Source: an uncultured Alphaproteobacteria bacterium
GTDB lineage: Bacteria; Pseudomonadota; Alphaproteobacteria; Methylaequorales; Methylaequoraceae
Length of the DNA: 64,000 bases
Reading direction: 5' to 3'
Assembly (NCBI GenBank): GCA_902579395.1
Contig: CACHGK010000001.1
Coordinates: 64,504 to 128,503, forward strand
Positions 138 to 15,015 of the stretch are shown piece after piece; position 1 is the stretch's first letter; the number at the start of each line of letters is the position of its first letter. Under the pieces are notes generated by a model. It ran no database searches, was not told where the DNA came from, and worked only from the letters and a program-made list of their open reading frames with translations. The translations under genes and the position numbers were made by a program.

Positions 138-758
138 TTAAATTTCTTTGTTAAGTGTGATTAAACGAAATCTACCACCTTGATATTTAGAATCTTTTTT
201 TGTAAGTATCTCAAAAATAGTAACGCTTTGATTATTGATTTCTACCCCAACTGAATATTCAGGTTTTATTCGAAGGGCATGTGATAAAATTGCTCTTATA
301 GTTCCTGCATGTGAAATGATCACTAAATTCTCATTATTCACAAAATTTAAGTTTTCAATCCAATATTTTACTCTTTTACATTGTTGTGCATAACTTTCTC
401 CATTTGGAGGAGATATTTCTGGAGATAAAAATGAAAAATTATGTTTAGTTTTATTTTCTCTAATAGTTTTCCAAATTATAGAAACCTTTTTTCCTGACCA
501 ATCACCAAAATTTTGTTCGCTAAGATTTTCTTCCTGAATTATTTTAGAGTAAGGCACATATTTTGATAGTGCTTTTGCAGTTTGGATTGCTCTTTTTAAG
601 GGACTAACATACCAAACACAATCGCGAGGAATAAGTGTAGATAATTTTTTTAATTTACTAAGTTGTATGATGGCATCTGGATTATGTTCTGGAAAAAAAC
701 CTGAAAATGATTTCACAGGGGCGTGACGAATTAAAAATAATTTTCCCGGCTTAATCAA
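138..758 (-). CDS. cobC: alpha-ribazole phosphatase (histidine phosphatase / PGAM-like family)
   Basis: 206-aa ORF with histidine-phosphatase motifs: LIRHAP near the N-terminus, SPLKRAIQTA, FGDWSG and ISHAGTIRA. It overlaps the upstream cobS by 4 nt, so the specific function is assigned from context. Confidence 0.6.
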   Translation of the reverse strand: MIKPGKLFLIRHAPVKSFSGFFPEHNPDAIIQLSKLKKLSTLIPRDCVWYVSPLKRAIQTAKALSKYVPYSKIIQEENLSEQNFGDWSGKKVSIIWKTIRENKTKHNFSFLSPEISPPNGESYAQQCKRVKYWIENLNFVNNENLVIISHAGTIRAILSHALRIKPEYSVGVEINNQSVTIFEILTKKDSKYQGGRFRLITLNKEI

Positions 759-1540
759 TTTATTAAAGATATTACGATAACATTTCCAAATAGAAACATT
801 AACTCTGTTAGAAAAGCTATTGCACCTAAAATATCACCGGTAATACCTCCTAGAGCATTTTTTGATTTTAGACCTACTACAAAAATAATGGAAAGCATTA
901 AAATTATACCTAATAATATTCCATCTAGTGGCAAAATAAATAATGTAGGAACAATCCAGATTAAAATTGCAATTATTAGATTTTTATTAGATATTTTTTT
1001 TACAATAGTTCCAGTTTTTGCAAATTTTGAATGCGAAAATAAGTTTCTTGAAAAAATAATTGCAATTTTTCCTGATGCAAAACCTATTGAAAGTATAGAA
1101 ATTAAAGAATATCCCATTTCAGCTAAAGAAATAATTAAACCAAGTCTTAAGAGTAAGCCTAAAACCAATGCCACAACTCCGTAAGTACCTAATCGACTAT
1201 CATGAATAATTCTATTAATTTTTTTTTCACTACCTCCAGCTCCTAAACCGTCTGATGTGTCAGCAAGACCATCTTCATGAAATGCACCAGTTAAAAGAAC
1301 GCTTATGGTAATTGAAATAACTGAGGATAAAAATATCGACAATCCCAAACTTATAAACCAATCACCTATTCCTCCTGATAAAAATCCAATAATAAAACCT
1401 ATAAGTGGAAAGGTCCATGCAGCATTTGTTAAATCTGGAGCTTTATTTGAAAAATACGACCATTTAACTGGAATTCTTGTGAAAAACATAATTGATGCCA
1501 TAAAATCTACAAAATATTTATTTTTAAAAAAAAATTGCAT
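755..1540 (-). CDS. cobS: adenosylcobinamide-GDP ribazoletransferase (cobalamin synthase)
   Basis: 261-aa polytopic membrane ORF. It carries N-terminal FFTRIPV and the FHEDGLADTSDGLG motif typical of CobS, and sits between cobT and cobC. Confidence 0.8.
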   Translation of the reverse strand: MQFFFKNKYFVDFMASIMFFTRIPVKWSYFSNKAPDLTNAAWTFPLIGFIIGFLSGGIGDWFISLGLSIFLSSVISITISVLLTGAFHEDGLADTSDGLGAGGSEKKINRIIHDSRLGTYGVVALVLGLLLRLGLIISLAEMGYSLISILSIGFASGKIAIIFSRNLFSHSKFAKTGTIVKKISNKNLIIAILIWIVPTLFILPLDGILLGIILMLSIIFVVGLKSKNALGGITGDILGAIAFLTELMFLFGNVIVISLIN

Positions 1541-1542
1541 AA

Positions 1543-2559
1543 TTAGGTTTTTGTGCTGATACCAGCCTCTGAAAATGTTGCCATTTTATTATGGGTAACT
1601 AAAGCTGCCTTAATTATTAATGCTGCTACAGCACCGCCGCTAGCCTCACCAAGCCTCATATTTAAATCAAGAATAGGCTTTTTTTTGAGGCATGAAAGAA
1701 TGTGTTGATGACCTGGCTCGGAAGAAAGATGAGAAATTTGACAATGATCGAGAAAATCTTTTTTAAAAAGTGTTAATGTAGCCGCAGATACTGTTGATAT
1801 AAAACCATCTAATAAAACCGGAATTCCCATTACTCTTGCAGCAATGACTGATCCAGCAATTGCAGCCATTTCTTTACCTCCAAACGCTGCCAAAATATTA
1901 CAAAAACTATCGAATTTTTTCCCATGCAATTTTAACCCAGCCTTAATTACTGCAATTTTATTTTTGAGCCTTCGACTTGATATACCAGTTCCTAATCCAA
2001 TTAGTTGTTTTAAAGGTCCATTAAAAAGTGCACATGAAATAGCTGTTGCAGCCGTTGTATTTGATATACCCATTTCTCCAAGTATTAACAAATTACATTT
2101 TTTTGGAACTGAATTATATCCTAATTCCAACAAATTAATGGTTTCATCATAATTCATGGCTTTTTCTCTTGAAAAATCTTTTGTAGGTTTTGTTAGTTCA
2201 ATTGGAATAACAGATAACTTTATATTTGCTAAATCACAAAGTTGATTTATGGCGGCACCACCATTCTTAAAGTTTTTTACCATCTGTTCAGTTACTTCGG
2301 CTGGGTATGCTGATACTTTTTTTTTTGCAACACCGTGGTTACCAGCAAAAACTAAACATTTAAAATTATTTATTGATGGTTTTTTTTTTTTCTTCCATCC
2401 AGCCATCCAAACTGCATAGTTTTCTAAATCACCCAAACTTCCTTTAGGTTTAGTAAGTTTGTTTTGATGTTTTCTTGCTAAATTTGCATAATGATTATCA
2501 AAATTTTTGAGCAAAATTTTTCCATTTAATAAATTTTTAATAATTTTTTTATTATCCAT
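1543..2559 (-). CDS. cobT: nicotinate-nucleotide--dimethylbenzimidazole phosphoribosyltransferase
   Basis: 338-aa ORF with GEMGISNTTAATAI, PVLLDGFISTVSAA and MRLGEASGGAVA motifs characteristic of CobT. There is a 2-nt gap to cobS. Confidence 0.85.
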   Translation of the reverse strand: MDNKKIIKNLLNGKILLKNFDNHYANLARKHQNKLTKPKGSLGDLENYAVWMAGWKKKKKPSINNFKCLVFAGNHGVAKKKVSAYPAEVTEQMVKNFKNGGAAINQLCDLANIKLSVIPIELTKPTKDFSREKAMNYDETINLLELGYNSVPKKCNLLILGEMGISNTTAATAISCALFNGPLKQLIGLGTGISSRRLKNKIAVIKAGLKLHGKKFDSFCNILAAFGGKEMAAIAGSVIAARVMGIPVLLDGFISTVSAATLTLFKKDFLDHCQISHLSSEPGHQHILSCLKKKPILDLNMRLGEASGGAVAALIIKAALVTHNKMATFSEAGISTKT

Positions 2560-2685: not shown

Positions 2686-4290
2686 TTAAGATGTTAATTT
2701 TAAATCTTTAAAATTTTCTGGTAAGTAATTATTAAAATAATTTTTTAATGCAGGTAAATTGGATGCCATTAATTTAAAACTATCTTTTTCAATTTTTAAA
2801 ACCTCAGAATTCCTTGTTGCTTTAATAGTCCCTGTTCTTCTTCCACCCTCAAGAATTACTCTTGAACCAAAATGATCGCCTTTTTTATAAATTTTCTTAA
2901 AAATTTTACCATTTTTTGTATTTTTATACGTATTAATAAATTCACCTTTTTGTACGATGTAGAAACCGTCTGCAATCATACCCTCTGTAAAAATAACATC
3001 ATTTTTTTTATAGTTTTGAAACTCAAATGAATTTTTTTTAATAGAATCTGTCAGTACTGCATTTCTTGGAACAATACACTCTACTAACCATCCAACAAAT
3101 ACCCTAATTTTTGTTGAGATTGACGGTAATAGAGAAAGGTAGAAAATCTTCCATACAACCCAAGCAACAAATCCTTTCAACTGTATGAAGTAGATTTTGC
3201 CTACTCCAACTTTTGAACCCAGAGATGCTAATGCACCCTGAGATCTAAAATTGAACGGCTTCATTTTCTTACTTAATGTTTTTAATAATATGTTCTTGGA
3301 TAATACATGTGCCTGTCTTACTGCGCATTGTGCAGTTAGAGGAGAATCAATCAAAACATCTTTTGAATTAGAAGGAACAAATGCGCAATCACCTAAGGCC
3401 CAAATATTTGTATTATTTACTACCTCTAAATATTGATTTGTAAGGATTCTGCCTTTTTCTAATTTCATATTAGCTTGTTTTATAATATCAGAAACAGATG
3501 ATCCAATTGTGGAAATTACTGTATTTGTATCAATAGATATATCATTTGATAGATAAACCTTTAAAGATGAAACCTCTTTGAGTTTTGTGTTTAAATGAAG
3601 TTTAATATTTAAATTTCTAAAAACTTTTTGAGTATACAAACTCATTTTTGTGTCTAACTCTGGAAGAAGTCTGTTGGAAATTTCCACAACATGAATTTTA
3701 ATTTCAGATTTGTCTATATTTTTATAATATATAAGAAGTCTATCTATCATCTCTTTTAACTCGCCGGATGTTTCAACTCCAGAAAAACCTCCTCCAATTA
3801 TGACAAAATTCAATAACCTTTTTTTGAGTTTACAATCATTTGTAACATCTGCTAGTTCTAAGCATCTGATTACATGGTTTCTTATATTGTAAGCATCTTT
3901 CAGATTTTTGATCGTCATTGAATTGTTCTTAAGACCGGGTATAATGTCTGAGTTATTTTCTTGACCTAACGCTATAACTAAATGATCAAATGAAATATAA
4001 TGCTGTCGTCTTCTAAAACCTTGTACTATACCAACATTTTTATCGTTAAGATTAATTGAATTTACTTCTGCATGTCTAAATTTTATTGAATCTAACATTT
4101 GCCTGATAGGAGTTACTGCATCTGAGGCAGAAATAACACCTGATGCAACCTCAGGTAATAAAGGTTGAAATACGAAATAATTATTATTACTAATTAGTTC
4201 AATTTCAAATGAATTTAGTTTAATTTTCTGTAAACGTTTAGCACAATAAATTCCTCCAAAGCCTCCACCTATAATTAAAATTTTCGTCAT
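2686..4290 (-). CDS. ndh: type II NADH dehydrogenase (NDH-2) with C-terminal cyclic-nucleotide-binding domain
   Basis: The N-terminus has two dinucleotide-binding motifs (ILIIGGGFGGIY and FVIIGGGFSGVETSGEL) and FQPLLPEVASG, typical of NDH-2. An amphipathic or hydrophobic segment (FVAWVVWKIFYLSLLP) follows. The last ~120 aa look like a cNMP-binding fold (FYIVQKGEF ... GDHFGSRVILEGGRRTGTIKA). Confidence 0.75.
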   Translation of the reverse strand: MTKILIIGGGFGGIYCAKRLQKIKLNSFEIELISNNNYFVFQPLLPEVASGVISASDAVTPIRQMLDSIKFRHAEVNSINLNDKNVGIVQGFRRRQHYISFDHLVIALGQENNSDIIPGLKNNSMTIKNLKDAYNIRNHVIRCLELADVTNDCKLKKRLLNFVIIGGGFSGVETSGELKEMIDRLLIYYKNIDKSEIKIHVVEISNRLLPELDTKMSLYTQKVFRNLNIKLHLNTKLKEVSSLKVYLSNDISIDTNTVISTIGSSVSDIIKQANMKLEKGRILTNQYLEVVNNTNIWALGDCAFVPSNSKDVLIDSPLTAQCAVRQAHVLSKNILLKTLSKKMKPFNFRSQGALASLGSKVGVGKIYFIQLKGFVAWVVWKIFYLSLLPSISTKIRVFVGWLVECIVPRNAVLTDSIKKNSFEFQNYKKNDVIFTEGMIADGFYIVQKGEFINTYKNTKNGKIFKKIYKKGDHFGSRVILEGGRRTGTIKATRNSEVLKIEKDSFKLMASNLPALKNYFNNYLPENFKDLKLTS

Positions 4291-4319
4291 TTTACCTTAG
4301 TTTTTTTTAAATAATTAAA

Positions 4320-4745
4320 TTATTTTGCTCGATTTCCTCTTAACGCAAAAAATAATCCAGCACAGTATAAAATTATATGGAAATGATCATATAATAAAAC
4401 TTCTATGAAACTATCAGGCTTACTGACAAGTATCACCCCACTGATAACAATCACCACGATTGTTCCAGAAAACCTTGTTAATAAATCACCAAATAACCTT
4501 AAAAAACCTAATGATCTAAAAATTCCTCCGAAAAGCAGTCCAAACCCTGCTAATAATTCGCTTATTATAACAAATAACCAGATTATTATAGGTAAATCAT
4601 ATGAATCTGCATCACTGGGATCAATTGGAAGTTTATCTAAGCCTTGTTGAATAAAAACAATGGCTAAGGGCATCCTAATCAACCAATTTGAGCCATTAAA
4701 ATCTGGGAGTTTGTTATTAATTTTTCTTAAATATGCGTCAAACAT
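4320..4745 (-). CDS. DoxX-like small integral membrane protein
   Basis: 141-aa ORF with about 4 hydrophobic helices. The N-terminal segment RMPLAIVFIQQGLDKL resembles the DoxX family. There is a 29-nt gap to the ndh-like gene. The family assignment is weak. Confidence 0.35.
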   Translation of the reverse strand: MFDAYLRKINNKLPDFNGSNWLIRMPLAIVFIQQGLDKLPIDPSDADSYDLPIIIWLFVIISELLAGFGLLFGGIFRSLGFLRLFGDLLTRFSGTIVVIVISGVILVSKPDSFIEVLLYDHFHIILYCAGLFFALRGNRAK

Positions 4746-4899
4746 ACTTAAAATAATAACAACAAAATATAATTGATCAAATTTATTTACTGAACAAAGT
4801 ATATTTATATTATGAATAAACTATTCTTGATTTTTTGGTAGTGGGTTTTCATAAACATCCATAACTGAGGTTAGATTTGCAAAAGTCTAATATATTAAT

Positions 4900-6264
4900 T
4901 TAAATCCAAATATCAGATGAGCAATCACCGCCGGGATATCTTGTTTCATGAGCTCGAGAAGGACCATTTGGTTCTTTTCCAAAATCTATTAAAAAATTAT
5001 CTCTAATTTTCATACCACCTTTTTCATTGTCACAATCAACAATTAGCATCATGCCTCCAGATTCGTTCATTTTTGGATAGAATTGATTATCCCAGGATGA
5101 AAATAAAGATGTAGTTACATACAATCTTTTACCATCAAGTGAGAGTTGAATCATTTGAGGAGCACCGTTAACTTCTCTTCCGTTAACATTATTAGCTTTT
5201 CCTAATAATCCTCCTATCCAAACTTGTCCTGTAAGTTTAGGTTGTGAAGGATTAGAAATATCATACTGCCTTAGATCACCGTGAAGCCAATTAGAAAAAT
5301 AAAGGTATTTATCATCCATTGATACTAAAATATCTGTGATTAAGCCAGGCATTGGGACTGGGAGAATTTTGTTATCTATTGACTCTACATCTATAATTTT
5401 TTCTATTCTATAATCATTATCTGAGGTTTTATACCAGTGGAATATATTTGAGCTTAATGCGGCTCCAACGAAGCCATGACTTGAATCAGGATTGTGATGA
5501 AATCTTACCTCTAACGGAATCAAACCCTCATCACCAAGGTCTACAGATTTAATTATCTTTTTTTCTTTGAAATTCCAAAAATGAATGTGCCTTCCGTAAT
5601 TATTTTTTGAAACGTCCTCTAAGTTAAAACCAGGTATAAATGTTTTTGGAGCACCCCATTCTGTGGATACCATAATATTATGCCTTGGTTGATACCAAAA
5701 ATCATAACTAAAATTCATCCCTTTTATATCTTTCTCCCATCTTCCTACAATTTCAAAATCCTTGTTTAGATGAAGAAATCCTCCAGGAGCATTACCATTG
5801 GCGTCACCAAGCATTGAAACGATTATTTCTGAGCCTAGACAATGGACAGTATGAGGAGAAGAAAGATTTGTTTTCTGCTTTATTTCTTCTCCAGAAATTG
5901 TTTTATATAAAGTTGGTTTTTTGGAATCAGTTGCCGTGTCTACTATATAAAAATTACTACTTTGTAATCCAGGTATGATTAAATATTTTCTTTGCATTTT
6001 TTCATCATCATGACATGATGAACAAGCATTCCAACCCATATGATGCAACTCATCTCCATAATTTCCAAGTTCAGTTCTACATATAACTTTGCCATAAGTT
6101 GGACTTTCAATATCAACATCAATAGTAGCAAGATAGTCCGGTTTTTTAATATTACTTCCAGTATAGATGCATACTGTGTAAACTACTTTCTCCTTAGGCG
6201 CTTTTAATGCTTCTTGTGGAGAGGCATAGCCTGGTCCTGAACAACATTTAACTTCATCTAACAT
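4900..6264 (-). CDS. selenium-binding protein 56 family / methanethiol oxidase homologue, no signal peptide
   Basis: 454-aa ORF that aligns end to end, from memory, with eukaryotic SELENBP1. Shared segments include N-terminal CCSGPGYASPQEALK, DELHHMGWNACSSC, YDFWYQPRHNIMVSTEW, MPGLITDILVSMDDKYLYFSNWLHGDLRQYDIS, PQMIQLSLDGKRLYVTTSL and C-terminal RYPGGDCSSDIWI. Confidence 0.85.
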   Translation of the reverse strand: MLDEVKCCSGPGYASPQEALKAPKEKVVYTVCIYTGSNIKKPDYLATIDVDIESPTYGKVICRTELGNYGDELHHMGWNACSSCHDDEKMQRKYLIIPGLQSSNFYIVDTATDSKKPTLYKTISGEEIKQKTNLSSPHTVHCLGSEIIVSMLGDANGNAPGGFLHLNKDFEIVGRWEKDIKGMNFSYDFWYQPRHNIMVSTEWGAPKTFIPGFNLEDVSKNNYGRHIHFWNFKEKKIIKSVDLGDEGLIPLEVRFHHNPDSSHGFVGAALSSNIFHWYKTSDNDYRIEKIIDVESIDNKILPVPMPGLITDILVSMDDKYLYFSNWLHGDLRQYDISNPSQPKLTGQVWIGGLLGKANNVNGREVNGAPQMIQLSLDGKRLYVTTSLFSSWDNQFYPKMNESGGMMLIVDCDNEKGGMKIRDNFLIDFGKEPNGPSRAHETRYPGGDCSSDIWI

Positions 6265-6344
6265 AATTTATTCCCTTAAAATTATTTAATATTATATAAT
6301 CATTTTAAAGATCTTTTTTTCTTTTTTATTTAAGGTAAAATTTA

Positions 6345-6725
6345 TTAAAAGATTTTTGTTGCCAAAAAAGCAAAGAAAAAACCAATTAAATAAAGTATCG
6401 ATGAAATATACAGCATTGTTAAATTTATATATCTAAGTTTCGAGCAAAGATTTGCCAATTTAGCATCAGATGGACATGGAGATTTTCTTTCCTTCAAAAA
6501 TAGTATAATTGAAAAAAAAATCATAAATCCAGCTGTTATAAAAATCTCAATTTTATATTTAGATATAATTGTTATCCAGGGAAATACAGAGATTATACTA
6601 GCTAATGCTGCGCCCATTCCAAGTGTTATAAGTAATGCAGGTAAGGCACAGCAAATCAATGTACTAAAGCTTGCAAACAAACTTAGTATAGGTGTAAAAA
6701 ATTGTTTAAATAAGCTTCTATTCAC
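6345..6725 (-). CDS. MerT-topology small metal-transport membrane protein (putative)
   Basis: 126 aa with three predicted TM helices. TM1 carries the vicinal cysteines LICCALPALL, comparable to the MerT CCLGPL motif. The loop before TM3 carries a second Cys pair (SPCPSDAKLANLC). It overlaps the upstream HMA gene by 8 nt. Confidence 0.4.
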   Translation of the reverse strand: MNRSLFKQFFTPILSLFASFSTLICCALPALLITLGMGAALASIISVFPWITIISKYKIEIFITAGFMIFFSIILFLKERKSPCPSDAKLANLCSKLRYINLTMLYISSILYLIGFFFAFLATKIF

Positions 6726-7023
6726 GGTTTATCTCAACTATATCATAACCAGAATCATTTATTATTTGTTTTATGGTTTGATTATCCAAGTTTTTATTTT
6801 TCTTTAATCTCACCGTTATTAACATTTTTTCTAAATTTACATCAATATCTAAAACTGATTCTCTTTTCATAAAAAGTTTTTCAATTGATCTTGCGCAAAA
6901 ATCACAAACCAACCCATTCACTGATATAGTAAAAAAATCTTTAGTATTTTCCTTATTCTCTGCATTTGTCAGATTACTCATAAGAATCAATATAGAAAAA
7001 GTTATATAAAAAAATAATTTCAT
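6718..7023 (-). CDS. periplasmic heavy-metal-associated (HMA, MerP/CopZ-like) protein
   Basis: 101 aa with an N-terminal signal peptide (ILILMSNLTNA-EN). An HMA fold signature follows: ISVNGLVCDFCARSIEKLF (CxxC) ... DVNLEKMLITVRL ... DSGYDIVEI. Confidence 0.7.
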   Translation of the reverse strand: MKLFFYITFSILILMSNLTNAENKENTKDFFTISVNGLVCDFCARSIEKLFMKRESVLDIDVNLEKMLITVRLKKNKNLDNQTIKQIINDSGYDIVEINRE

Positions 7024-7034
7024 TTTTATTCTCC

Positions 7035-7682
7035 CTAAAATCTTTTTATAAAATTAAAAGTAAAGTTATTATTGTTGCTAAGCCCTGTCTCTAACAAATA
7101 ATCGTCTTTAAACAATCTCAGCAAAGGTGTAAAAACCATTTTGTCTTGAACATTGGGCATATGTTGAATTTCTAACATAAACCAAGTATGCAAATCCCCA
7201 TATTTTCCTATATAAGGAGAGTATCCTACTCGAGCTTTTTGAACAAAAAATTTATCAATCGAAGAGTTATAATTTATTCTATTTTCATAACTTGTGAAAT
7301 ACCGCCTATCTTCCCAGTCAAAAGACAAACCAGAAAAAAAATTTGGCTCAATTTTTTTTTCAAAGTTTTTATAATCACTAAAGGCAATACCTAAACCATT
7401 TTTAAGATAAAAATTTGTCTGAGATTTCGACGTGTTTATTCGTTTTATGAGATAATTTAACTGTGTGCCATGAAACTGCCACTCTTTTTTTCTCCAAAAC
7501 TCACTTTTATAACCGATAGAATATTTTATTGAAGGAGAAAAATGAAAATGGAAACTATGTTTATTAAAATCATTCATTTGCATAATTGTCCAACCTCCTG
7601 CATAAGAAATTGGTCTAGCATGTGATTTGGTTATAAAAATCAACACTGATAAAAAAAAACAGCGAAGTATAATTTTATTCAT
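7035..7682 (-). CDS. putative small outer-membrane beta-barrel protein
   Basis: 215 aa with a signal peptide (FITKSHA-RP). It has alternating aromatic/polar strands rich in Y/F/W/N and a C-terminal ...FNFIKRF ending in Phe, as in OMP barrels. I recognise no family. Confidence 0.35.
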   Translation of the reverse strand: MNKIILRCFFLSVLIFITKSHARPISYAGGWTIMQMNDFNKHSFHFHFSPSIKYSIGYKSEFWRKKEWQFHGTQLNYLIKRINTSKSQTNFYLKNGLGIAFSDYKNFEKKIEPNFFSGLSFDWEDRRYFTSYENRINYNSSIDKFFVQKARVGYSPYIGKYGDLHTWFMLEIQHMPNVQDKMVFTPLLRLFKDDYLLETGLSNNNNFTFNFIKRF

Positions 7683-7739
7683 TACATTCTCCTTCTAAAT
7701 ATGGGCTGAAAAGAAAGTTATCTTCTTTTCTTTAAATTT

Positions 7740-8081
7740 TCAGGATAAAAATCTTGGTGGTGGATCCTCTGTTTTGAGGTTTAATGAATTAAATTTTTCG
7801 AGAAAGTTATTCAAATGGGGTGTAAAATTTACAGAAATTAAAAATTTAATATATTCAAGTTTTTGTATTTGAATTAAATGACAATCACATTTAAAGCAAA
7901 ATTGTAATGTTTTTTTTTCTGTAGAATGACTGTGACAATTCTCATCGTTCTTGACTTTTTTATATAAATGATCTTTTAATTCGTGTTTGCTAATACAAAT
8001 GGAGATGGATTTGCTTAAAACATTTGAAGTCATCAATCCACTGATAAGCAAAAAAAATAAAAAAAATTTATAAAATTTCAC
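7740..8081 (-). CDS. secreted Cys/His-rich small protein, unknown function
   Basis: 113 aa with a signal peptide and clustered potential metal ligands (ENCHSHS, CFKCDCH). It is the first gene of the minus-strand arm, divergent from the TonB-dependent receptor. Confidence 0.3.
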   Translation of the reverse strand: MKFYKFFLFFLLISGLMTSNVLSKSISICISKHELKDHLYKKVKNDENCHSHSTEKKTLQFCFKCDCHLIQIQKLEYIKFLISVNFTPHLNNFLEKFNSLNLKTEDPPPRFLS

Positions 8082-8218
8082 ATTATTAATTTAATATAAA
8101 TTTTTTTAAATAAAAGGCCTTTAGTATTAAATTCTTAAACATTCACGGAATAATTATAAGTTTCAGTGCGTCTAAATTAGTACTTACGAAATTTTAATCT
8201 ATTTTGTTAGGTGAAGGG

Positions 8219-8248
8219 TTGACAAAATAATAAGTGTTATAATATAAC
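8219..8248 (+). promoter_or_regulatory. sigma70-type promoter candidate for the TonB-dependent receptor operon
   Basis: TTGACA lies at 8219-8224. An 18-nt spacer leads to TATAAC (8243-8248). A consensus TATAAT at 8238-8243 would have only a 13-nt spacer. AGGAAA, a possible RBS, lies at 8272-8277 before the ATG at 8282. Confidence 0.45.
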
Positions 8249-8253
8249 GTTTA
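8231..8253. promoter_or_regulatory. Zur-type (Fur-family) operator candidate
   Basis: The sequence is TAAGTGTTATAATATAACGTTTA. Its core GTTATA-A-TATAAC (8236-8248) is a perfect 13-nt palindrome. It matches 18 of 22 specified positions of the proteobacterial Zur box as I recall it (GAAATGTTATAnTATAACATTTC). It overlaps the -10 region. Confidence 0.5.
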
Positions 8254-8281
8254 TATTAATTACTTAACCTCTAGGAAATCA

Positions 8282-10246
8282 ATGTTCAAAAAATTTATCC
8301 CCTTTTTAATCTTGCTATTTGCAGCAAATTTAAATGCTGAAAATATAGAATCTATTTTTGTTGCACCTGATGTATTTATTACATCAAAAATTAAGCCAAG
8401 TACTGAGTATGAAAGTGACAGAGGCAATATTTTATTTGATGGTCATGAAATTGAAAAAAAAAGAAAATACTCTATTGGTGATATGTTAAAAGATTTACCT
8501 GGTATTTCTTCAAAAGGTCTTGGTAACGCTTCGCGACCTATAATACGAGGTATGACTAATTCGAGAGTTAAAATTCTTCAGAATAGTAGTGGTACTACAG
8601 ATGTATCTGAATTTGGTGAGGATCACATAGTAGGTTATGATCCAATGCTGATTGACAAAATTGAGATTATTAAAGGTCCTGGAACATTATTGTATGGTAA
8701 TAATGGATTTGCAGGTGTAGTTAATATAATTAATCCTCTAGTAGCTGTTGACAAACCTGTAACTGACGAAAATGTGGAGGCAAATTTTGGTTACACTACA
8801 TCCGGCGGTGAACTAAAAGGAAGCATTAAAGCTGCTCAATCAATTGAAAACTTTATTGTTAGACTTAATGCAAGTGGACTAAGTTCAGGTCCTTACGATT
8901 TAGCAAATACCTCAAATAAACAACCAAATTCTTCAAAATTTATGGCATCTGGTGGTGTTGGTTTAACATATAATGATGGTGACAATTATATTGGATTTTC
9001 TTTTGATAAACTTGAAGCTGTTTATGGAAATCCTGGTCCTGAAGGTGAGGAAAACATGACCTCATTAAATCCTACTAAGAATTCATTTAATTTTCAATCG
9101 TCGTTTTCACTTAATACTGCATATTTTAGTAAGTTTAACTTGCAAGGTGCAGTATCCGAATATAATCATTCTGAGAGAACTGGTGACGGAAATAATCACA
9201 ATATTAATTTCTTTAGTGATTTATATGAAATTAAAACTTCTCTTAATCACAAATCAATCATTGATGTTAATAGCGAAGGATTAATTGGGTTCCATTTTCA
9301 AAATTATGATCAAGGTGCCTTAGGGCAAGAGGAAAGTCATTTAGTTCATACAAGAACATCTAGTTTTGCATTATTCGCTCTTGAAAGCTTTAATTTTGAT
9401 TTATTTGACTTGGATATCGGAGGTCGTGTGGAATCAGTTAATTTAAAAAATACTAGTATGGAAAAAGGGTTTTTTCCTGGTGCATTTTCTTCAACAATTA
9501 AAAAAGAAATATTTAATAATAACTCTGTTTTTGGTGGTTTTGACTTTACTCAGAGAGCACCTAATGCAGTTGAATTATTTGCTAATGGTCCACATCATGC
9601 ACAAGAACAATTTGAAATCGGGGATAGCAACATGGATGTCGAAACCTCTTATAATTTTTCTTTAGGGTATAGCTATAATAATGGCTTAGATACCTTTAAA
9701 ATTGAAACATATTATAATTATATTGACGATTTTATTGCGGCAGACAGAGATGGTACTACTACATTAGTTGAGGGTGAAGACATGAACGATGTTAATTTTA
9801 CTCAATATAATGCAATCTTCACTGGTTTAGAGGTTGGTGGTCAGTATGCTTTTGCCAAAGTTAATGACTTTGATTTCATTTCTAATGTTATGATTGACTT
9901 TCTAAAAGGATACCGAACTTCAAATGATAAAGCTTTATCATTAATACCTCAAACAAAGATGAACTTTGGTATAAAAGCCATAAATGAAAATTGGGATGCA
10001 AATCTAAATTACTTCCATTATTTTGATAAGGAATTTATAGGGCCATTTCAAACTAGAACTGGGGGGCACTCAAGATTGGATTTTGATTTAACACGAGACT
10101 TTAACTATTCTGATCTCTCTGGTCATTTAATGTTTACGGCTTCTAATTTACTTGATGTTGTTGGAAGAAATCATTTAGAGGCGAAAAAAGCAAATGTCCA
10201 ATTGCCTGGAAGAAGTTTTATGTTTATGCTTAAATTATTTTACTAA
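8282..10246 (+). CDS. TonB-dependent outer-membrane receptor (metal-type)
   Basis: 654 aa with a signal peptide (LLFAANLNA-EN). Plug-domain motifs are present (DLPGISSKGLGNASRPIIRGM, IEIIKGPGTLLYGNNGFAGVVNI). The barrel motif RAPNAVELFANGPHHAQEQFEIGD and a C-terminal aromatic residue (...LKLFY) are also present. Confidence 0.85.
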   Translation: MFKKFIPFLILLFAANLNAENIESIFVAPDVFITSKIKPSTEYESDRGNILFDGHEIEKKRKYSIGDMLKDLPGISSKGLGNASRPIIRGMTNSRVKILQNSSGTTDVSEFGEDHIVGYDPMLIDKIEIIKGPGTLLYGNNGFAGVVNIINPLVAVDKPVTDENVEANFGYTTSGGELKGSIKAAQSIENFIVRLNASGLSSGPYDLANTSNKQPNSSKFMASGGVGLTYNDGDNYIGFSFDKLEAVYGNPGPEGEENMTSLNPTKNSFNFQSSFSLNTAYFSKFNLQGAVSEYNHSERTGDGNNHNINFFSDLYEIKTSLNHKSIIDVNSEGLIGFHFQNYDQGALGQEESHLVHTRTSSFALFALESFNFDLFDLDIGGRVESVNLKNTSMEKGFFPGAFSSTIKKEIFNNNSVFGGFDFTQRAPNAVELFANGPHHAQEQFEIGDSNMDVETSYNFSLGYSYNNGLDTFKIETYYNYIDDFIAADRDGTTTLVEGEDMNDVNFTQYNAIFTGLEVGGQYAFAKVNDFDFISNVMIDFLKGYRTSNDKALSLIPQTKMNFGIKAINENWDANLNYFHYFDKEFIGPFQTRTGGHSRLDFDLTRDFNYSDLSGHLMFTASNLLDVVGRNHLEAKKANVQLPGRSFMFMLKLFY

Positions 10247-10249
10247 TAA

Positions 10250-10618
10250 ATGTTTAAATATTACTCATCATACGCATTGGTTTTCAGTAATTTTACCCAT
10301 CTTTTATGTTGTGGTTTGCCCACTATCATCGGTTTAAGTTCATTGCTAACCAATTTTATGTTTATTGAAGTGTTCATTTCCAATATAGAGGCATTCGAAG
10401 CTTTTGAAATTTATCTTTTTGTAATATCCTCTTCAATTCTATTAATGCTTGTTTTACAAGAAATTTACAACAGAAAAATTAAATGTTCTGATGACATAGA
10501 TTGTTGTGAAGCTAAAGAATGTGAGTCCACAAAAAAAAAAATAAAGATCAATATTATTTTTTCCTTAGTGCTATATATATTTAACAGTACATTGTTTCTA
10601 TATGAGATTATCACTTAA
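10250..10618 (+). CDS. MerT-topology small membrane protein, paralogue-like of 6345..6725
   Basis: 122 aa. TM1 carries HLLCCGLPTIIG, a second TM follows, then a Cys-rich loop (KCSDDIDCCEAKECES) and a third TM. It starts 3 nt after the receptor stop. Confidence 0.35.
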   Translation: MFKYYSSYALVFSNFTHLLCCGLPTIIGLSSLLTNFMFIEVFISNIEAFEAFEIYLFVISSSILLMLVLQEIYNRKIKCSDDIDCCEAKECESTKKKIKINIIFSLVLYIFNSTLFLYEIIT

Positions 10619-10620
10619 AA

Positions 10621-11265
10621 ATGATTTATTATTTTAACGAAAGTGATTCTTTTGATATTTTTAAAAAAAGAGACGAACAAATAGGAGTTCTAAACAGAAA
10701 GTCTCCTAAAAACTGCATGAATTTTTTTAAAAAATTACTTAAAACACCTTTTTCTATATCTGGAATTGTAGGTCAAAAAAATACAAGAATGGACATCGAG
10801 AGACATCTTAAACATAATATTTCCAAAAGCATTCAATATGATTCATTTTATGATAACTGGTTAAATGATATGAGTGAGATCTGTAAAATGTTCTGTATTT
10901 TTCAAAAGCAAAAGAAAGTTAGTTTTTGGCTTGGATCTGATAGAGGTTGTAAGCGTTATCATGTCGATATGGTTCCTTTTAGATTATTAGTTACTTATTC
11001 TGGTCAGGGCACTGAAATTTTACCCAATGAAGCTGCTGATCGTAATGCATTTATTCAGGGTGAATCTAATGAAAAAATTGTGAGGGATAAATCTAAATTA
11101 ATGCATTTAAGTGATTGGGATATTTCTATATTTCGAGGCGGAAAGAACGGGATACTTCATCGGACACCAAATTCGGCTTTAGAAGGCAAATCATCTGTTC
11201 TAATGCGTCTAGATCACGAAGATTACCTTACTGAGATTTATAAAATAAATGGAGCTTATGGCTAA
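10621..11265 (+). CDS. cytoplasmic protein with HxD...H motif, DUF1826-like (tentative)
   Basis: 214 aa with no signal peptide. The segment CKRYHVDMVPFRLLVTYSGQGTEIL ... GILHRTP resembles, from memory, the DUF1826 family, which is often found in Zur regulons. HVD...H could form a metal facial triad. It starts 2 nt after the previous gene. Confidence 0.35.
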   Translation: MIYYFNESDSFDIFKKRDEQIGVLNRKSPKNCMNFFKKLLKTPFSISGIVGQKNTRMDIERHLKHNISKSIQYDSFYDNWLNDMSEICKMFCIFQKQKKVSFWLGSDRGCKRYHVDMVPFRLLVTYSGQGTEILPNEAADRNAFIQGESNEKIVRDKSKLMHLSDWDISIFRGGKNGILHRTPNSALEGKSSVLMRLDHEDYLTEIYKINGAYG

Positions 11266-13355: not shown

Positions 13356-14660
13356 TTACTTAGCCGTTGCAGTAATTTTGTAGATTTCTCCTTCATCTAC
13401 AGCTGCGTAAAGAGCTCCATCAGGACCTAATCTTAGACCTCTGAATCTCTTTGTTAGACCAGTTGGCATGTGAATCACACTTTTAATTGATTGACCATCT
13501 TTAGCAATGTCAACAACATCAATTCTCATACCAGAAGGTGTTCCACCGAAACCAATACCCATGATTCCAACAGCCATACGACCTTCCCAGTAACCCCAGT
13601 TACTTCCTTTTAAGAAAGCAGCTGAGCCAGTACCTTGAGATAAGCCGTTATTGTTCCATGCCGGTGGCATCAAGTCACTAAAACGAGTGTCACTCATAGG
13701 CATGAACTGAGCACGCTTAGCAGGAAGCATACCTTCTTTTTGATTTGGCATATATCCACAATATTTATCAGGACAATCACCACGTCCACCAACGTTAGGA
13801 CGAGGATCCCATCCGCCGTTACCACCGTTTACTAAAGCAGTGATTTCGTCATTTTGCCATGGACCATGTTCAGCAGTAAATGCTCTTCCATCACTAGGAC
13901 GGAAATCAATTCCCTGAACATTTCTGTGACCATAAGTATACATACGCTTATCGAAACCTCTTGGAGGTTTGTTTCCAGGATGTGCTTTTCCGTCAGTATC
14001 AATTCTTAATACGTTTCCACCTAATAATTTAGGAGATTGCGGAACAACACCTCTATGACGGTCACCAGTTGTAGCCCAAAGATATCCTTCAGGACCGAAA
14101 CGTAATCTGTTTCCGTTATGTGCACCTGGTCCACCAAATGGGTGATTTGATTCGAATGGTTTATATTGAATATCTTTTACAATATCAACACGGTTAGATA
14201 CACTTTTGAAGTCTTTACTAACTTCCATTCTCATAATGATGTTACCATCACATTTTTCAAAGTTAGTTTTACAACCACTACCATGATATTTATCTGAAGT
14301 GGAAGCTACGTAAATCCTTCTATTCTTATTGAAATTAGGATCTACAGCTACGCCCATCATACCAGCTTGTCCTGAGCAGAAAAGATCGTCATTAGTACTA
14401 GCGTACCCTTTAGAACCTTTCATACCTGCAAGAGCATTAACAGCTCCTGAACTTGTTTTTACAGATAAACCTTTACATTTTTCTGTATAAAACATGTCAC
14501 CACCACTAGTAAATGCCATGTCCCACGGATTTTCCAAACCGTTCATTATAGACATTGCACTAATATTTGGGGTATTCATTGTATCAGCATTACTTGGCGA
14601 TGCCATAAGAGCTGCAGTAGCAACAACAGCTGCTGATAAAAGTTTAGATTTTTTAATCAT
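13356..14660 (-). CDS. periplasmic PQQ-dependent (soluble glucose/sorbosone dehydrogenase family) sugar dehydrogenase
   Basis: 434 aa with a signal peptide (AALMASPSNA-DT). GSDH-family motifs are present: LENPWDMAF, HNGNRLRFGPEGYLWATTGD, GNVLRIDTDG, YGHRNVQGIDF, EHGPWQNDEI and GGNGGWD. Confidence 0.8.
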   Translation of the reverse strand: MIKKSKLLSAAVVATAALMASPSNADTMNTPNISAMSIMNGLENPWDMAFTSGGDMFYTEKCKGLSVKTSSGAVNALAGMKGSKGYASTNDDLFCSGQAGMMGVAVDPNFNKNRRIYVASTSDKYHGSGCKTNFEKCDGNIIMRMEVSKDFKSVSNRVDIVKDIQYKPFESNHPFGGPGAHNGNRLRFGPEGYLWATTGDRHRGVVPQSPKLLGGNVLRIDTDGKAHPGNKPPRGFDKRMYTYGHRNVQGIDFRPSDGRAFTAEHGPWQNDEITALVNGGNGGWDPRPNVGGRGDCPDKYCGYMPNQKEGMLPAKRAQFMPMSDTRFSDLMPPAWNNNGLSQGTGSAAFLKGSNWGYWEGRMAVGIMGIGFGGTPSGMRIDVVDIAKDGQSIKSVIHMPTGLTKRFRGLRLGPDGALYAAVDEGEIYKITATAK

Positions 14661-14697: not shown

Positions 14698-15015
14698 TTA
14701 TTTTTGCGCATTTAAATACGCGGCTAAATTTGCGATTTCAATATCTGACAAAGGTTGAGCCATCATAATCATCAAATCAGAGTTAGGCCCTATCTTTGTT
14801 CCAGCTCTATACGTATTAAGTCTATCGATAAGATAAGAAACTTCTTTACCTTTAATTTTAGGATAGCTAGCTAATCCCATGCCGGCGGGACCATGGCAGT
14901 TACCGCAATTTTGTGCATAACGGGCTTCACCTGCTTTGATATCTCCTGCGATAACTTTGTTAGTACCAAAGACAACAAAATTAAGGCAAACTAATCCTAG
15001 AATTAAATGTTTCAT
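14698..15015 (-). CDS. class I c-type cytochrome (c551/c552-like)
   Basis: 105 aa with a signal peptide, the haem-binding motif CGNCHG and a distal Met region (LMIMMAQPLS). It lies 37 nt upstream of the dehydrogenase on the same strand. Confidence 0.8.
   Translation of the reverse strand: MKHLILGLVCLNFVVFGTNKVIAGDIKAGEARYAQNCGNCHGPAGMGLASYPKIKGKEVSYLIDRLNTYRAGTKIGPNSDLMIMMAQPLSDIEIANLAAYLNAQK

Follow-up and report, generated by a model that had tools for sequence, protein, structure and literature searches.

A stretch of 64,000 nucleotides (nt) from an uncultured alphaproteobacterium of the family Methylaequoraceae (contig CACHGK010000001.1, positions 64,504 to 128,503; hereafter the window) probably carries, between its positions 4320 and 11265, two separate metal modules of a low-GC marine bacterium that are neighbors in one alphaproteobacterial clade. 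Module B consists of three plus-strand genes, for a TonB-dependent receptor, a 122-residue inner-membrane protein and a DUF1826 protein, and is predicted from its operator and its conservation to be a zinc-starvation operon controlled by Zur. Module A, the core of the divergent minus arm, is a self-contained, widespread and uncharacterized cassette whose sequence and gene context suggest that it probably serves copper-like metals; it encodes a secreted Cys/His peptide, an outer-membrane barrel, an HMA protein and a 126-residue inner-membrane protein. A preliminary description of the window had read both arms as a single metal-acquisition system around one control region, in which each arm led from an outer-membrane component through a small MerT-like inner-membrane protein with a Cys-Cys pair (CC protein) to a cytoplasmic metalloenzyme. 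Zinc and copper limit or poison marine microbes, and the passage of metals across two membranes in abundant small-genome bacteria is poorly known. Our work was computational. It established the gene identities, the folds, the conservation, the Zur boxes and the neighbor statistics; all that is said below on function derives from sequences, structure predictions and the context of the genes. The open reading frames (ORFs) of the preliminary description were all recovered (9/9), and ORFs, domains and coordinates confirmed the gene identities and the gene order that it had given for both arms. It had also been correct about what is missing, since Pfam and NCBIfam scans of 4320-11265 found no MerA, MerR, P-type ATPase or ABC transporter.

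The evidence for module B begins with its promoter. The window contains one exact copy of the Zur box, GTTATAATATAAC, and about 0.03 copies would be expected by chance in 64 kb, as estimated from base composition. This box spans the spacer and the -10 element of the plus-arm promoter, 34 nt upstream of the receptor start codon. The proteobacterial Zur motif is the same, GTTA-N5-TAAC, and the operators of Zur-repressed TonB receptors in Caulobacter are likewise placed either on the -10 element or in the space that separates it from the -35 element (PMC4176598). Every related locus with upstream sequence had a Zur box with no more than one mismatch 30-90 nt upstream of the receptor start; these were L006 (twice), L009, L010, L013 and L080 (loci are numbered with the prefix L) and 21 of 21 metagenome loci. 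The TTGACA element beside the box was also conserved in related loci. A generic promoter scan found 47 sites where 41.8 were expected, overall not above chance, and a generic terminator scan found no terminators. Because the promoter scan was uninformative, the case for this promoter rests on its overlap with the Zur box and on the conservation of TTGACA in related loci. Within the 200-nt intergenic region between the two arms the Zur box was the single recognizable operator. The idea of one control region for both arms was not borne out, as the palindrome that lies over a promoter and is conserved in orthologous loci, typical of a Zur-regulon operator, belongs to the plus arm only and cassettes convergent to the Zur operon lack a box.

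The products of the plus-arm genes fit this assignment. The receptor has the Pfam domains Plug and TonB_dep_Rec_b-barrel. Its best NCBIfam match was ZnuD (NF038289, 210.6 bits), and its closest solved relative in the PDB was the ZnuD structure 4rdr (E = 1.5e-35), followed by OprC (4e-9). Because ZnuD was the best match in both databases yet the score stayed below the equivalog cut-off of 950, we describe the receptor as ZnuD-like and not as an equivalog. The arm thus resembles the systems of Neisseria (ZnuD) and Caulobacter (ZnuK/L/M) in having a Zur box over the promoter and a receptor with ZnuD as its closest solved relative, and in including DUF1826, a recurrent member of Zur regulons; it differs from Neisseria ZnuD in the low receptor score. 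The gene for the 122-residue protein starts 3 nt after the receptor gene in the window and directly followed it in 46 of 50 metagenome loci. This protein belongs to no Pfam family, and its lone NCBIfam match was MerT (16.9 bits, E = 0.005, cut-off 150). L150 and L153 have no receptor; there the gene for the 122-residue protein heads a set of ABC genes and is itself preceded, at a distance of about 40 nt, by a Zur box. The DUF1826 gene follows after 2 nt. Its product matched PF08856 with 81.9 bits (threshold 22), and H114, D116 and H180, which form an H-x-D...H triad, were invariant in 42 homologues; a search for solved structural relatives of the protein found none. Copies of DUF1826 that have been relocated in related loci have a Zur box of their own, and DUF1826 has been linked to Zur in Francisella and by comparative genomics (PMC5786701, PMC2770081).

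The zur gene and ABC genes like those for ZrgBCE adjoin the plus-arm operon in many relatives. The Zur islands of these relatives resemble the Vibrio ZrgABCDE system in having genes for an ABC ATPase, an FtsX-type permease and a DUF3299 protein, which come directly after the 122-residue gene in L150 and L153, whereas the window differs from that system in that such genes were not found in it (ZnuC query, no match). Taken together, these data suggest a simple scheme for module B. When zinc is scarce, Zur would leave its box over the -10 region, and zinc, as such or in a complex, would then enter through the outer membrane by way of the ZnuD-like receptor. By analogy with MerT and Hg(II), the 122-residue protein may rely on ligand exchange at its His-x2-Cys-Cys motif and four loop Cys to bring Zn(II) through the inner membrane, and the triad of DUF1826 points to a cytoplasmic metal-dependent protein needed in zinc starvation. 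The acquisition of metal, which the preliminary description had assigned to both arms, is therefore retained for the plus arm as Zur-controlled zinc uptake; it did not stand for the minus arm, because of the CsoR, CueR-like and extracytoplasmic function (ECF) sigma factor neighbors that its cassette has elsewhere.

In the literature searched, a MerT-like membrane protein has not been described as operon partner of a ZnuD-type receptor. A MerT-like protein regulated by Zur would thus be new, and the plus arm a novel form of the Zur-controlled receptor operon. If true, such a protein would constitute a previously undescribed route, or helper, for the entry of zinc. The region also occurs in a shorter form: in L080 (15120-17755, a metagenome-assembled genome of the Pelagibacteraceae), a Zur-boxed receptor gene is followed by DUF1826 with no 122-residue gene between them, so the CC protein appears to be dispensable in some relatives. 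A profile search of 1.84 billion proteins with the 122-residue family gave 117 clusters of distant relatives. Many of these belong to a wider family of membrane proteins (P0293-P0380; 120-190 residues, no Pfam family) whose helix 1 has the motif H-x-FCCG-x-P and which also show W/H-x-E..E and a loop of the form DC...GC-H-PC-x-KKK; their C-terminal tails are often rich in His. We considered extending the link with Zur to the wider family and dropped this idea, as both of the contexts examined were stand-alone genes with neither a TonB receptor nor DUF1826.

We then turn to module A. Three of its four proteins, the peptide, the porin and the CC protein, have no Pfam family. The 113-residue peptide has a signal peptide and the motifs CH.H and C..C.C, followed by a C-terminal PPPR. 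Of 73 genome loci, 39 had a homologous small secreted ORF before the porin gene, with the motifs in the same order (PCH, a Cys cluster, and a C-terminal RPP or PPP). Just upstream of the small-peptide gene of L006 (12800-12870) we noticed a tandem duplication of about 27 nt, TTTTAAGTTTT[A/T]ATTGAACTTATTTAA, which may be a regulatory repeat. The preliminary description had called the 215-residue protein barrel-like, and structure prediction agreed: an AlphaFold2 model built with 41 homologues showed a signal helix and a 12-stranded barrel (pLDDT 89.9, pTM 0.80). The best PDB match in Foldseek was KdgM (4pr7, E = 3.6e-4, TM 0.61), and NanC was matched also. The barrel resembles the 12-stranded monomeric porins KdgM and NanC in size and in fold (TM 0.5-0.6). 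It differs from them in sequence, at about 10% identity, and neither Pfam nor NCBIfam placed it in a family, so that the similarity is at the level of the fold only. Known KdgM/NanC members carry acidic sugars, not metals.

In 86 of 91 loci the HMA gene was preceded by the porin gene. The HMA protein matched PF00403 with 32.8 bits (threshold 24.8) and has the CxxC loop GLVCDFCAR, which is conserved across loci as G[LM]VC[DAS]FCA[QR]; its scores were below the equivalog cut-offs of both CopZ (42.6 vs 91 bits) and MerP (19.4 vs 92.55). The HMA gene and the gene for the 126-residue protein overlap by 8 nt.

The cassette was found to be widespread. In the protein database the 126-residue family forms 706 clusters, and in the genome collection it was met in at least 279 species, common ocean lineages included; the cassette occurs in Alpha-, Beta- and Gammaproteobacteria, Bdellovibrionota and Thermodesulfobacteriota. 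Cultured carriers include Bdellovibrio sp. HCB-162 and HCB117, the Methylophilaceae isolate HalH-M7 and Variovorax sp. SRS16. Among the 80 genome loci found with the 126-residue protein, the order porin-HMA-CC was the same in 78, and a receptor and DUF1826 were nearby in only 2, L013 and L080, both from the clade of the window. These numbers do not agree with the proposal that the two arms form one system. On plasmids, the pair of HMA-like and CC genes was detected on Variovorax megaplasmids only, where the RefSeq record labels both genes "hypothetical protein". The same plasmid search also picked up a fusion of MerT and HMA that lies in a copper island of Vibrio and is unrelated. Small genes for a "GDCCVxC domain-containing (seleno)protein" were seen beside true MerT/MerP or a MerT-HMA fusion in plasmid-borne metal islands of Alteromonas and Vibrio (L098, 3694-3906; L156, 5748-5942).

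We asked which genes accompany the cassette, by clustering and annotating the recurrent neighbors within 5 kb of it. CsoR-family genes with the Cys-His-Cys signature adjoined the cassette in 8 loci, in operon-like or divergent orientation (median distance 22.5 nt). CueR-like MerR genes were divergent from it in L031 and L090 (the L031 protein scored 136.6 bits vs a cut-off of 147.4), a ZntR-like regulator was near it in L079, CusF adjoined it in 3 loci, and an ECF sigma factor did so in 5 Bdellovibrio-type loci. These neighbors in other lineages suggest Cu(I) or a similar soft metal and induction by excess. Neither the MerR regulator nor the MerA reductase of mer operons was seen among the recurrent neighbors in the 80 loci. 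Mercury was considered as the metal of the cassette and judged unlikely, given the lack of MerA/MerR and the retention of the cassette in open-ocean genomes. In the genome loci L012-L091, the small Cys/His peptide gene and an adjoining CsoR, MerR-type regulator, ECF sigma factor or CusF were mutually exclusive: a regulator or CusF adjoined the cassette in none of the 39 loci with the peptide and in about 18 of the 34 without it. The cassette of the window has no adjoining regulator. It resembles the csoR-copZ-copA and CueR operons in its HMA protein and in the CsoR, CueR-like or CusF neighbors that it has elsewhere, and it differs from them in that it lacks a P-type ATPase, that its HMA protein is predicted to be periplasmic, and that the window copy stands without a regulator. 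The literature searched held no relevant report of a MerT-like partner of CsoR. We picture module A as a self-contained relay through the cell envelope, in which the porin, the secreted Cys/His peptide, the periplasmic CxxC HMA protein and the MerT-like protein would act together on a thiol-loving metal, Cu(I) being the likeliest. For this module as for module B, we infer the metal, the direction of transport and every biochemical step; the analogy with MerP and MerT would favor movement from the periplasm to the cytoplasm, though the direction is not settled.

The two CC proteins were compared with each other and with MerT. Pairwise BLASTP gave 20% identity, and hydropathy showed three hydrophobic segments in each, connected by Lys/Arg-rich loops, which is the architecture of MerT. 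The 126-residue protein has C25-C26 in helix 1 and C84 and C94 in the basic cytoplasmic loop; the 122-residue protein has H17-x2-C20-C21 in helix 1 and C79, C85, C86 and C91 in the basic loop before helix 3. The corresponding positions in Tn501 MerT are 24,25/76,82 (the sequence used was 100% identical to an annotated merT). When the profiles of families A and B, to which the 126- and 122-residue proteins belong, were aligned with hhalign, the probability was 95.3% (E = 2e-8, 100 columns), with the helix-1 CC and the loop Cys aligned. The preliminary description had proposed that the two proteins share topology and Cys placement as ancient paralogues, and these comparisons upheld it. Membership of the two proteins in the MerT family was not supported, as all matches were below family thresholds: the 126-residue protein had no Pfam MerT match and reached 15.4 bits with NCBIfam MerTP (cut-off 180), and the E-values of the CC proteins against NCBIfam MerT-type models were 0.005-0.011. 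Their sequences suggest that the two CC proteins are distant paralogues, MerT-like in architecture and not members of the MerT family.

The comparison can be extended to the whole MerT-MerP system of Tn501 and Tn21. Like that system, the cassette has a gene for a CxxC HMA protein beside one for an inner-membrane protein of about 120 residues with three helices and two Cys pairs, one in helix 1 and the other in the basic cytoplasmic loop; both sites are in register with true MerT. Unlike it, the cassette has the HMA gene before the CC gene, the reverse of merT-merP, has no MerR/MerA, stays below all family thresholds in sequence similarity, and adds a dedicated porin and a Cys/His peptide. Family B is further removed, with His-x2-CC, four loop Cys, control by Zur and no HMA partner. 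It is conceivable, and we offer this tentatively, that the 126- and 122-residue proteins represent a new and widespread superfamily of thiolate-relay inner-membrane transporters, related to MerT only at a distance, that serve nutritional metals and not the detoxification of mercury. One branch would serve copper together with a porin, an HMA protein and a Cys/His peptide, and the other, controlled by Zur beside a TonB receptor, would enable streamlined ocean bacteria to take up zinc with no ABC transporter. If the assignments made here are confirmed, the genes would provide new markers for metal stress in metagenomes and metatranscriptomes.

Several of our observations weigh against the reading of two modules, one for zinc uptake and one for a copper-like metal. 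First, regulators of metal excess such as CsoR and CueR fit poorly with an uptake role for module A. CsoR and CueR switch genes on under metal excess, not starvation, and the CsoR-family, CueR-like, CusF and ECF sigma factor genes counted above are what would be expected if module A were a tolerance device, one that removes, buffers or exports Cu(I), or some other soft metal, when the periplasm or the cytoplasm contains too much of it, in the manner of csoR-copZ-copA, with the CC protein and the porin in place of the ATPase. The secreted Cys/His peptide could then be a periplasmic sink. Against this, the cassette has no energy-coupling component; the known precedent, MerT/MerP, moves metal inwards; and the cassette is kept without an adjoining regulator in streamlined open-ocean genomes, where an excess of copper is unlikely. 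We regard tolerance as a possibility to be taken seriously, if not the likelier one.

Second, the metal of module A may not be copper. In L033 the cassette comes after znuA, with both on one strand, and in L038 it has znuCB-zur/znuA as its direct neighbor; it is thus beside znuABC-zur in two unrelated lineages, and it adjoins the Zur operon in the clade of the window in four arrangements; zinc therefore stays a possible metal. In this clade at least, module A might then handle zinc, with or without cadmium, and be tied to the Zur regulon, for example if Zur with bound zinc activated it from a position ahead of its -35 element. In Caulobacter, Zur can activate transcription from sites so placed (PMC4176598). 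Against this, cassettes in convergent or stand-alone layouts were not found to have an upstream Zur box, and a zinc context was seen in 2 of the 80 genome loci outside the clade of the window vs at least 13 with copper-type sensors or CusF. Besides the Zur box and the receptor -35 element, no second motif common to the clade was found upstream of the cassette. We consider a zinc function of module A unlikely.

Third, the relationship to MerT, from which the idea of transport is taken, is faint. Only 17 of 36 members of family A matched PF02411, all below threshold (best E = 0.0016), and 1 of 22 members of family B did, also below threshold; in hhalign comparisons with true MerT, the probability was 6.6% for family B and 37.6% for family A, whose two Cys sites fell in register. 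Because the relationship is below threshold, transport by the CC proteins is an analogy and not demonstrated homology. In addition, the AlphaFold2 model of the 122-residue protein was of low confidence (pLDDT 64.8), and the zinc island of relatives also encodes an ABC system like ZrgBCE, so that zinc may cross the inner membrane mainly by a route other than this protein. One could accordingly view the CC proteins as membrane-anchored metal buffers or chaperones, or as thiol-redox proteins, and the adjacency of the modules as that of a variable region with conserved synteny. The neighborhood is indeed variable, with SBP56, DoxX/NDH-2, peptidase M32 and ABC genes moving within it, and distant relatives of the 122-residue family stand alone in unrelated contexts. 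This view has to face the fact that in hundreds of species the CC gene directly adjoins, or overlaps with, that of a periplasmic or outer-membrane partner, and that the Cys pair in helix 1 with the Cys cluster in the cytoplasmic loop is the relay arrangement of MerT. It appears quite unlikely to us.

Finally, the two modules are found together more than the two-module reading would explain. We counted adjacency, defined as a cassette within 6 kb of the Zur operon, in those loci of the window's clade whose two flanks were each 3 kb or longer (n = 15), and the cassette was near the Zur operon in 9 of them. Four layouts were seen: divergent as in the window, convergent (L006, L110, L130, L133, L149), co-directional as a seven-gene array (L108), and a few kb apart (L148, L153). 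Adjacency in 9/15 loci through four rearrangements hints at a selective link. The comparison of related loci thus gave adjacency within the clade, in line with the preliminary description, but no shared regulation of modules A and B was found, and outside the clade the cassette goes alone. In the divergent layout the Zur box is upstream of any plausible cassette promoter. On these grounds we concluded that modules A and B are independent units that share a metal-gene neighborhood. In L009 (7604-7681), between the cassette and the TonB receptor, we noticed a short ORF, MAWTKPMISEISVGLEINSYACAEK, with a PqqA-like E-x3-Y spacing, followed by a hairpin and a T-run.

The remaining part of the preliminary description concerned the two genes downstream of the cassette on the minus strand. 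SBP56 is a confident assignment (PF05694, 711 bits vs a threshold of 34; PDB 2ece at E = 1e-116). SBP56 enzymes are copper-dependent, and clusters of methanethiol oxidase genes in Hyphomicrobium and Ruegeria have the order mtoX-SCO1/senC-mauG (PMC5739008). The window resembles these clusters in that SBP56 lies beside putative copper-handling genes, 80 nt after the 126-residue gene. It differs from them in the other features: the N-terminus of the protein, MLDEVKCCSGPGY, is not a signal peptide, the score against NCBIfam MtoX (NF052453) was 152.7 bits vs a cut-off of 650, neither SCO1 nor MauG was found near the gene, and the neighborhood is not conserved. In our first survey, SBP56 was near the cassette in 0 of 91 loci. 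It directly followed the cassette only in L096, from the same species, and in L092, which is 85% identical, and it was convergent to the plus arm in L116, L131 and L147. SBP56 and DoxX may both be later and unrelated additions, SBP56 as an insertion downstream of module A that is restricted to this species group. DoxX matched PF07681 just under its gathering threshold (23.3 vs 23.6 bits); it is separated by 154 nt from SBP56 and by 29 nt from the NDH-2 gene, which is likewise on the minus strand, and DoxX and the gene for NDH-2 fused to a cyclic nucleotide (cNMP)-binding domain move as a unit in L012, L120, L121, L132 and L141. DoxX thus belongs with the NDH-2/cNMP gene and not with the cassette, and neither SBP56 nor DoxX can be kept as the cytoplasmic end-point of an arm.

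That both arms form one integrated acquisition system with a single control region, each feeding a cytoplasmic metalloenzyme and the minus arm supplying copper to an SBP56 methanethiol oxidase, seems very doubtful: the divergent layout, the adjacency and the array of L108, and an SBP56 that is copper-dependent, lies on the same strand as the cassette and, having no signal peptide, would need cytoplasmic copper, all speak for it, but apart from the window's species SBP56 is found in this position in a single close relative, and it stands beside the other arm elsewhere, DoxX pairs with NDH-2, the Zur box serves the plus arm only, and the cassette is alone in 78 of 80 genome loci. A supply of copper to SBP56 by the cassette in the species of the window itself is possible, though conservation gives it no support.

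The features discussed here and those that surround them are listed in Table 1.

Table 1. Genes and regulatory elements in and around the two metal modules (positions in the window)
Feature	Position	Strand	Basis or remark
Cobalamin lower-ligand assembly genes (CobT-like DBI_PRT, CobS, CobC-like phosphatase)	138-2559		Just beyond NDH-2 gene
NDH-2-like flavoprotein fused to C-terminal cNMP-binding domain	2686-4290		
DoxX-like membrane protein, 141 residues	4320-4745	minus	Pfam DoxX 23.3 bits, borderline
SBP56/SELENBP1-like protein, 454 residues	4900-6264	minus	Pfam SBP56 711 bits
Three-helix CC inner-membrane protein, 126 residues ("MerT-A", family A)	6345-6725	minus	Hydropathy, Cys positions
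Predicted periplasmic HMA (MerP/CopZ-like) protein, 101 residues	6718-7023	minus	Pfam HMA 32.8 bits and signal peptide
Predicted outer-membrane 12-stranded beta-barrel, 215 residues	7035-7682	minus	AlphaFold2 model
Predicted secreted Cys/His peptide, 113 residues	7740-8081	minus	Signal peptide and Cys/His motifs
Plus-arm promoter: TTGACA 8219-8224, 18-nt spacer, TATAAC 8243-8248	8219-8248	plus	Read from sequence
Zur box GTTATAATATAAC (GTTA-N5-TAAC)	8236-8248	none	Center of a 12-1-12 imperfect palindrome
ZnuD-like TonB-dependent outer-membrane receptor, 654 residues	8282-10246	plus	Pfam, NCBIfam and PDB matches
Three-helix CC inner-membrane protein, 122 residues ("MerT-B", family B)	10250-10618	plus	Alignment and hydropathy
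DUF1826 protein, 214 residues	10621-11265	plus	Pfam PF08856 81.9 bits
Pyrroloquinoline quinone (PQQ)-type glucose/sorbosone dehydrogenase	13356-14660		Encoded in window
Cytochrome c	14698-15015		Adjoins PQQ-type dehydrogenase

The G+C content of the window is about 30%, and an Rfam scan of its whole length gave zero RNA elements. Cobalamin lower-ligand genes directly follow the cassette in L108. In L033, a gene at 3544-4695 encodes a porin-like protein of 383 residues with an N-terminal segment rich in His and Asp, DDDHDHDHSAHSDE; two Zur boxes in tandem closely precede the gene, znuCB-zur is next to it, and its product could be a zinc-regulated outer-membrane channel.

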